Source: a virus (Duplodnaviria; Heunggongvirae; Uroviricota; Caudoviricetes). From it: a stretch of 4,774 nucleotides of DNA. The position numbers and the translations under genes were made by a program. The stretch lies in IMG/VR virus record IMGVR_UViG_2671180846_000027. The stretch is one strand, 5' to 3'. Below, piece by piece: positions 1,210 to 1,237 of the stretch. Numbering within the stretch: position 1 is the stretch's first letter; each line of letters begins with the position of its first letter. Under the pieces are notes generated by a model. The model ran no database searches. It was given only the letters and a program-made list of their open reading frames with translations, and was not told where the DNA came from.

Positions 1210-1237
1210 ATGTTGATTACAAAAATGTAATCAACAT
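1210..1237. promoter_or_regulatory. Perfect inverted repeat ATGTTGATTAC-(AAAAAT)-GTAATCAACAT, candidate operator for a dimeric DNA-binding protein
   Basis: 11-bp arms are exact reverse complements with a 6-bp A-rich spacer. Lies just upstream of the candidate -35 of the moron promoter, in a 420-bp AT-rich non-coding region. Not followed by a T-run, so not a terminator. Confidence 0.45.

Follow-up and report, generated by a model that had tools for sequence, protein, structure and literature searches.

In Escherichia coli K-12, HprR (YedW) and CusR are response regulators that share a recognition sequence, and the published boxes read CATTACAAAATTGTAATG in the hprR-hiuH spacer and AAATGACAAAATTGTCAT in the cusR/cusC spacer. 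Expression of hiuH-msrPQ is induced approximately 60-fold by hypochlorous acid (HOCl) via HprSR and approximately 4-fold by copper via CusSR, and CusR and HprR are described in K-12 as having essentially one or two targets, which lie beside the genes for the regulators themselves. In enterohaemorrhagic E. coli (EHEC) O157:H7, adherence and colonisation require HprR, which binds the hiuH promoter there (PMC13064566). Here, we describe an element resembling these boxes in 4,774 nucleotides (nt) of viral DNA (Caudoviricetes; IMG/VR record IMGVR_UViG_2671180846_000027), the whole of which is referred to as the window. The window is 100% identical to the lambdoid prophage 'PPompW' (within O-island 57) of EHEC O157:H7, O26, O111, O103 and O145, and the element is located upstream of paa (also adfO or acfC; Z2053 in strain EDL933), a gene at 1402-2160 on the + strand for an AcfC-family periplasmic binding-protein-like adhesin with a signal peptide (RefSeq; Pfam SBP_bac_11, E = 5.5e-34).

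Combining the box match, the homologous flanks, the shared promoter architecture, the selective conservation, the uniqueness of the site and the occurrence of the regulators in almost all E. coli, we suggest that 1216-1231 together with TGTAAG at 1237-1242 is likely a site for the OmpR/PhoB-family regulators HprR and/or CusR, i.e. a candidate orphan activator site that would wire paa to HprSR/CusSR. From these data we infer binding and activation as well as what the dominant signal and the dominant regulator would be.

A copper-box-like core within the palindrome upstream of paa

An earlier note on this DNA had described an inverted repeat with 11-bp arms and a 6-bp spacer at 1210-1237. Read directly from the window sequence, this segment is ATGTTGATTAC-AAAAAT-GTAATCAACAT, exactly as described, and one extra base pair forms on each side of the spacer. 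The perfect palindrome, to which no strand is assigned, is truly of the form 12+4+12 (ATGTTGATTACA/AAAA/TGTAATCAACAT) with arms at 1210-1221 and 1226-1237, and pairing stops outwards where G1209 stands opposite G1238. Of dinucleotide-preserving shuffles, 0.7% contain a perfect inverted repeat of this kind (arms ≥12 nt, spacer ≤10 nt) when the whole window is shuffled and 0.1% when the AT-rich stretch 1150-1400 is shuffled. Thus, the 28-bp palindrome is a real feature and not a chance event. The note had also stated that the spacings of CRP, LexA and FNR sites are not matched, and direct reading agrees: neither TGTGA/TCACA nor CTGT/ACAG pairs, as in CRP (TGTGA-N6-TCACA) and LexA (CTGT-N8-ACAG) sites, are present, and TTGAT and ATCAA, which are separated by N4 in FNR sites (TTGAT-N4-ATCAA), are 12 bp apart. 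A literature search for the exact palindrome sequences gave only unrelated matches.

The central 16 bp (1216-1231, + strand) read ATTACA-AAAA-TGTAAT and form a candidate HprR/CusR response-regulator site, or 'copper box', on the basis of their match to the published box and their conservation. The half-sites ATTACA and TGTAAT are identical to those of the hiuH box, the spacer has the same length of 4 bp, and the likeness continues on both sides: (i) 5 nt past the box, a third half-site TGTAAG(GTT) (1237-1245, + strand) is identical to the TGTAAGGTT that follows the K-12 hiuH box at the same distance, and (ii) upstream of the box, local alignment identifies AAACAG (1203-1208, + strand) as what is left of the stretch preceding the box in the hprR-hiuH spacer (AAACAGCCTGG), AAACAG(CCTGG) being common to the two loci. 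In this arrangement, TGTAAT (1226-1231) and TGTAAG (1237-1242) form a direct repeat with an 11-bp period. In the K-12 sequence the hiuH promoter is gttatagAAACAGCCTGGttCATTACAAAATTGTAATGctgcTGTAAGGTTaccctggacgctttttcgcTATCCT and reads AAACAGCCTGGttCATTACAAAATTGTAATGctgcTGTAAGGTT-N19-TATCCT; the window promoter is ccAAACAGgatgttgATTACAAAAATGTAATcaacaTGTAAGGTTtatactcttcaatatgcgTATAAT and reads AAACAGgatgttgATTACAAAAATGTAATcaacaTGTAAGGTT-N18-TATAAT; and in the plasmid-borne cassette L006 (ggAAACAGCCTGGgtATTACAAAAATGTAATcaatgTGTAAGGTT) AAACAGCCTGGgt is retained before the box. Aligned locally to the K-12 spacer, the window scores 39 and L006 scores 52; 2000 shuffles reach at most 32. Finally, a -35 hexamer is weak or absent in both promoters.

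Because the half-sites, the spacer length and both flanks match hiuH, we conclude that the paa promoter module is, judged by sequence comparison, a homologue of an hprR-hiuH-type spacer that has lost the regulator gene. The two loci differ in that paa has no adjoining divergent regulator gene and in that an acquired gene for an adhesin-like binding protein takes the place of hiuH downstream; moreover, the paa spacer ends in A where hiuH has T, the paa site is one base nearer the -10, and the symmetry of the EHEC paa allele reaches 6 nt further on each side.

Promoter layout in the copper-box family

The motif ATKACA-N4-TGTMAT is highly specific, with one match in the window (0 mismatches; 0/200 shuffles) and one in the 44-kb prophage. 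The perfect matches in a 40.7-kb pco/sil island are confined to the regions upstream of pcoA and of silE and to the silC/silR spacer; of its four matches with one mismatch, one is located upstream of pcoE. A layout consisting of the box, N5, the third half-site, 21-22 nt and the -10 is common to cusC, silC, silE, hiuH, paa and the DUF305 cassette described below. The third half-site, a feature derived here from cusC, silC, silE and hiuH, follows the pattern TGTNAN 5 nt past the box on the side of the regulated gene: it is TGTCAC at cusC and silC, TGTCAT at silE, and TGTAAG at hiuH, the DUF305 cassette and paa (1237-1242).

Thus, the geometry of paa is that of the CusR box (cusC/cusR) and the SilR/PcoR copper boxes: two inverted hexamers are separated by 4 bp, the third half-site begins after N5, and the -10 lies a further 21-22 nt downstream. 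The half-sites ATTACA/TGTAAT of paa are also those of the pcoA box, whereas cusC, silC and silE have the half-sites ATGACA/TGTCAT and control metal efflux or metal-binding genes that adjoin their own two-component genes. The cusC box is, like the EHEC paa allele, an extended perfect palindrome (22 bp) and, therefore, extended symmetry recurs in this family.

For the paa promoter the earlier note had proposed a -35/-10 pair with TATAAT at 1264-1269 (+ strand). This -10, which is assigned here together with a predicted start, is invariant in 12 cassettes and is retained in our model, but a consensus scan gave no -35 partner for it. The lack of a -35 fits an activator-dependent promoter. The distance from the box centre to the -10 is 40.5 bp at paa compared to 41.5 bp for TATCCT of hiuH and TAAAGT of cusC, these -10 hexamers being assigned here and not taken from mapped starts. 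By analogy with hiuH and cusC, the paa site is probably an activator site that takes the place of the missing -35 and not a repressor operator.

The three-half-site layout of paa is also found on a metagenome contig (L025, 2077-4487) on which genes for a response regulator and a histidine kinase are followed by ATTACAAAAATGTAAT-ctaaa-TGTAAG and, 31 nt further on, by the TATAAT of a gene for a BceA-like ABC ATPase. The organisation of this contig is Firmicutes-like, and L019 was noted alongside it. BceR-like sites, which lie upstream of bceAB-type ABC transporter genes in Firmicutes, have the published consensus TNACA-N4-TGTAA; they belong to another phylum and another regulator subfamily, and the distance to the -10 is 31 nt on L025 as opposed to approximately 21 nt at paa. 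We claim no membership for them, and the relation to the paa site would be convergent or very distant. A functional parallel is provided by a copper-responsive system and effector of Legionella, in which a horizontally acquired, virulence-associated gene is reported to be placed under a copper-responsive two-component regulator (PMC6989116); there the regulator is encoded on the same island, whereas the paa cassette would depend on host core regulators.

Selective conservation and distribution of the site

Twelve distinct paa cassettes were compared in a footprint set anchored on the palindrome. The Paa proteins of the plasmid loci are 91-94% identical, whereas the upstream DNA is just 73-81% identical to that of the window. 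Among the 12 cassettes, invariant columns make up 15/16 of the central ATTACA-AAAA-TGTAAT (1216-1231), 5/6 of the TGTAAG located 5 nt after the box, and 6/6 of TATAAT (1264-1269). By contrast, 0/6 columns are invariant in the outer six bases of the left arm, 3/6 in the outer six bases of the right arm and 10/21 in the spacer between the third half-site and the -10, and no compensating changes between the two arms were found. Only the EHEC prophage allele is symmetric over the full 12 nt; the arms measure 10 or 9 nt in its nearest relatives and 6 nt in the others. The extra six bases of symmetry on each side of the EHEC allele might stem from templated 'quasi-palindrome correction'.

The paa gene is present in 611 of 5426 complete E. 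coli genomes, i.e. approximately 11%, comprising EHEC O157, O26, O111, O103 and O145 as well as plasmids of enterotoxigenic E. coli (ETEC) from pigs. Among the same genomes, the whole palindrome is found as one copy per paa locus in 608 genomes and nowhere else. In the 44-kb prophage it is a single copy even if up to 3 mismatches are allowed, and the half-site used by the earlier note has no further copies beyond chance there; a search for a regulon or repeat with the whole palindrome and this half-site returned only paa loci from the prophage and the E. coli genomes. The confinement of the palindrome to paa loci, with one copy in the prophage, excludes both a dispersed repeat and a phage operator set. 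Consequently, we rejected a set of phage repressor operators (even with up to 3 mismatches allowed, the prophage has no second site) as well as a dispersed repeat or terminal inverted repeat of a mobile element (one copy per paa locus, and no partner at the right end of the cassette).

Because the outer arm varies without compensation and the site is present only at paa, the selected unit is not the 28-bp palindrome itself. We conclude that the functional unit is the central 16 bp together with the third half-site downstream of the palindrome. These data also refine the earlier note, which had interpreted the palindrome as an operator for a dimeric regulator upstream of a moron promoter. A regulator site is very probable; however, the whole palindrome is not the unit, as its outer left arm is invariant in none of six columns, and an activator is likelier than a repressor. 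The search for other copies that the note had recommended, now carried out, speaks against a dispersed repeat, with the palindrome found at paa loci alone; the half-site recommended as the query, TGTTGATTAC, would have misled in that its first five bases lie outside the conserved element.

A divergent paa homologue (L057) carries ATGACAAAAATGTAAT-cataa-TGTAAG-N22-TACAAT. BLAST detects no other similarity upstream of this gene, and the box, the third half-site and the -10 are the sole recognisable similarity upstream of window position 1375. In a survey of distant paa homologues with one genome per species, only E. albertii and two Helicobacter homologues were recovered, and the Helicobacter homologues are without a box. 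The E. albertii homologue is considered below.

Candidate regulators and a model for paa activation

The hprR-hiuH and cusR-cusC gene pairs are present in 5418/5426 and 5336/5426 complete E. coli genomes, respectively, and no two-component genes were found in the window, in the 44-kb prophage or beside the plasmid cassettes. As the regulators are host core genes, paa would be an orphan, horizontally acquired target. The suggestion in the earlier note that the cognate factor is encoded outside the window is in agreement with these data, but this factor need not stay anonymous given that the core is an HprR/CusR-type box. Where the plasmid-encoded paralogues PcoR and SilR are present, they may bind the paa site too.

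In the proposed model, (i) HprS would sense hydrogen peroxide (H2O2) or HOCl and CusS would sense periplasmic Cu(I) or Ag(I), (ii) the activated sensor would phosphorylate its cognate regulator, (iii) the regulator would fill three half-sites comprising one inverted pair and one direct repeat with an 11-bp period, which would be centred at approximately -52 and -36 relative to the predicted start near 1276, and (iv) the bound regulator would recruit sigma-70 RNA polymerase to a promoter with a good -10 (1264-1269) and no -35. The resulting transcript would comprise a leader of approximately 126 nt and paa and would end at a hairpin at 2167-2192. In this scheme, judged from the promoter module, prophage-borne paa is probably switched on by copper or host-derived oxidants.

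Previously published expression data provide a correlation that is only circumstantial. In the supplement of an RNA sequencing study of EDL933, Z2053 (log2 fold change 2.43), cusC (3.49) and cusF (4.03) are all up in rumen content. The paa gene has been reported not to be regulated by Fur. In our literature search no paper was found that links paa with CusR or HprR.

Other cassettes with the same promoter module

The module is not restricted to paa. ACAAAAATGTAATC-N5-GTAAGG is found a second time on two plasmids (L006 and L008) and several metagenome contigs, approximately 220 bp before an operon whose products are a DUF305 protein and a YncE-like beta-propeller protein (box at 2131-2160 and operon at 2359-3781 on L006; also on L008, L020, L023 and L027). 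The promoter of this operon has a -10 of TAAAAT or TATAAT at a matching distance and the left half-site ATGACA, and otherwise has little similarity to that of paa. On F-type plasmids, the operon is preceded by ATGACAAAAATGTAAT-N5-TGTAAG and is often located directly upstream of paa. Also, silE of the pco/sil island L091 has a DUF305 gene (22979-23329) as its neighbour. A variant box, ATTACAAAAATGCAAT-catgt-TGCAAG, precedes an open reading frame for a secreted protein of 81 amino acids on L024 (box at 495-521, reading frame at 726-971) and on L027; this protein has a weak YdgH/BhsA-like Pfam match (22.6 bits, below the cut-off of 27).

These cassettes raise the possibility that paa is one of several small, self-contained mobile cassettes with a CusR/HprR box, together with the DUF305/YncE-like and BhsA-like cassettes, and that they constitute a mobile accessory regulon in which Paa is primarily an envelope protein for copper or oxidant stress or, alternatively, a colonisation factor induced by neutrophil HOCl or by dietary or host copper. 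We put this forward only tentatively. If true, Paa could explain part of the adherence defect of EHEC hprR mutants.

Alternative explanations

Several observations weigh against a role of HprR or CusR at paa. The spacer of the paa box is AAAA as opposed to AAAT or ATTT, and the third half-site is 21 nt from the -10 compared to 22 nt at hiuH, cusC and silE. In K-12, CusR and HprR have been classed as single-target regulators with targets beside the regulator genes, making the paa site an orphan; the K-12-type organisation, in which regulator and sensor genes adjoin the target, is not found at paa, although this organisation is typical rather than required for binding. The main text of the 2026 study of HprR in EHEC does not mention paa (PMC13064566). 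In EDL933 in rectum content at 6 h, Z2053 is up by a log2 fold change of 3.17 and cusC and cusF are not differentially expressed; therefore, CusR alone does not explain paa expression. Finally, the chromosomal paa homologue of E. albertii (L010, 2920-2935; 87% amino acid identity) has a degenerate box, TTTAAAATTATGTAAT, and no third half-site, and its upstream region is unrelated to that of the window.

One alternative is an inactive relic: the module would descend from an hprR-hiuH-type spacer, but its box would have lost regulator binding or its importance, with paa being constitutive or under other factors. The absence of an adjoining regulator gene, the distance to the -10 that is one base shorter than in the known members, the induction in rectum content without cusCF and the lack of an intact box in the E. 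albertii homologue would all fit with a relic. However, the box, the third half-site and the -10 have stayed invariant amid diverging bases and, in L057, are all that is recognisable upstream of 1375; the module has also been kept before two other cassette types; and a promoter without a -35 should require an activator. We, therefore, regard a relic as unlikely.

A second alternative is that a different dimeric regulator from phage, plasmid or host reads the full 28-bp palindrome and that the resemblance to the HprR box is incidental. A palindrome with 12-nt arms as in EHEC is improbable by chance, and the published cusC box, itself an extended 22-bp palindrome, suggests that extended symmetry may matter. 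But the outer left arm varies in all six columns without matching changes in the right arm, the 44-kb prophage holds neither a second site nor half-sites beyond chance, the palindrome is found nowhere else in the 5426 genomes, and the flanks shared with hiuH (AAACAG and TGTAAGGTT) extend beyond the palindrome. This alternative is very improbable.

The palindrome could also act as a nucleic-acid structure, i.e. as an RNA hairpin that ends or pauses read-through from the phage early operon, as a cruciform, or as a terminal repeat or recombination site of the cassette. Its RNA is predicted to fold into a stable hairpin (centroid -13.8 kcal/mol, z-score -3.6), and it is located approximately 10 bp inside the left end of a cassette the ends of which are sharp in many contexts. 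As for a terminator, no intrinsic terminator was called in 1100-1450, and the AT-rich stem is followed by GTAAGG and not by a T run. As for the structures in general, covariation is lacking and the stem shrinks to 6 bp in other cassettes; the left boundary of the cassette shifts between 1198 and 1216, abutting the box itself in L007; and no matching repeat was found at the right cassette end (near 2215-2220), nor is the sequence repeated elsewhere. We consider a structural function highly unlikely.

Alternatively, another OmpR/PhoB-family regulator such as PhoB could be the main user of the site. The pho box has the consensus TGTCAT-N5-TGTCAT and no inverted third half-site. TGTAAT-N5-TGTAAG at paa resembles it in being a direct repeat with an 11-bp period that overlaps the -35 position of a promoter without a -35, and this resemblance of the right half-box and the third half-site agrees with chromatin immunoprecipitation-microarray (ChIP-chip) data in which PhoB peaks with motifs coincide with the cusR/cusC and yedW/yedX boxes. 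But the half-sites at paa are exactly those of hiuH, whereas the pho box departs from them at its C position (TGTAAT as opposed to TGTCAT), the flanks are homologous to those of hiuH, and the companion cassettes are copper-linked (DUF305), all of which leaves a site used mainly by PhoB with very little probability.

Among other candidates, CpxR (GTAAA-N5-GTAAA), RstA, OmpR, ArcA, PmrA, PhoP, RcsB, TyrR, GlpR/DeoR, IHF and the AggR/Rns 'TATC' site were rejected because each fails in spacing or key bases (compared to consensus sequences alone), and a Xer/dif-like site with 11-6-11 geometry was rejected by inspection because the arms are unlike XerC or XerD half-sites.

Significance

If paa is a target of HprR/CusR, the regulon of these two regulators extends to an acquired, virulence-associated prophage gene, and paa gains a concrete signal in the form of copper or silver, or of H2O2 or HOCl. 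Such a signal would be relevant to copper-supplemented pig feed and to oxidants in the inflamed gut. Activation of paa would also provide a second, direct route by which HprR is required for adherence of EHEC. The type of box is already known from hiuH and cusC; what is new is the suggested copper/oxidant link to an acquired adhesion factor. Should the prediction fail, the site still illustrates clearly how a mobile gene has received a copy of the promoter module of a core-genome stress operon.

The paa cassette and its surroundings

The homology of the window to 13 plasmid loci in unrelated contexts starts and ends at like points and, therefore, paa constitutes a cassette with its own promoter and terminator. 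This cassette of approximately 1.02 kb (1198-2220, + strand) comprises the box, the promoter, the leader, the gene and the terminator. The boundaries detected by BLAST are at 1198-1216 on the left and at 2215-2220 on the right for most loci, with L003, L007 and L008 stopping earlier. Near-identical left ends were noted over L002-L008 and L013-L016, and no flanking repeats were seen. At the promoter end of the cassette, the GC content drops to 32-35%. The predicted 5' untranslated leader (1270-1401, + strand; inferred start approximately 1276) can be aligned in all cassettes and contains a ribosome-binding site, AGGAG, at 1391-1395; the terminator-like hairpin (2167-2192, + strand) is read from the window sequence as CGTCC-TTCA-GGACG followed by a T run.

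On the left, the cassette junction truncates a frameshifted pixH/papH-like fimbrial gene (708-1197, + strand), which is annotated as a pseudogene and was delimited by comparison with intact relatives. Intact PixH/PapH-like proteins end with ...PLKAGDYYAALRFKLDYE, whereas the window reads ...PLKAG followed by YSKQDVDYKNVINM*. Fimbrial homology ends at approximately 1196, and the RefSeq pseudogene annotation runs to the TAA at 1239-1241 inside the cassette. We considered the palindrome as a 3' coding remnant of the fimbrial gene and rejected this idea because the fimbrial homology ends upstream of the palindrome, which belongs to the paa cassette.

Three further observations concern the window at large. 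A 13-nt perfect inverted pair, AGTCAACAAAATA/TATTTTGTTGACT, is found at 684-696 and 1276-1288, 579 nt apart, and spans the pseudogene and the paa leader; it is probably due to chance because the right copy differs among cassettes. An N run at 2542-2611 masks part of the region of hokD, which encodes a hok/gef-type toxin. Between the end of the paa cassette (approximately 2220) and hokD, a second perfect palindrome, CCGATATGGGAA|TTCCCATATCGG, is located at 2280-2303 and has the form 12+12 with zero spacer.

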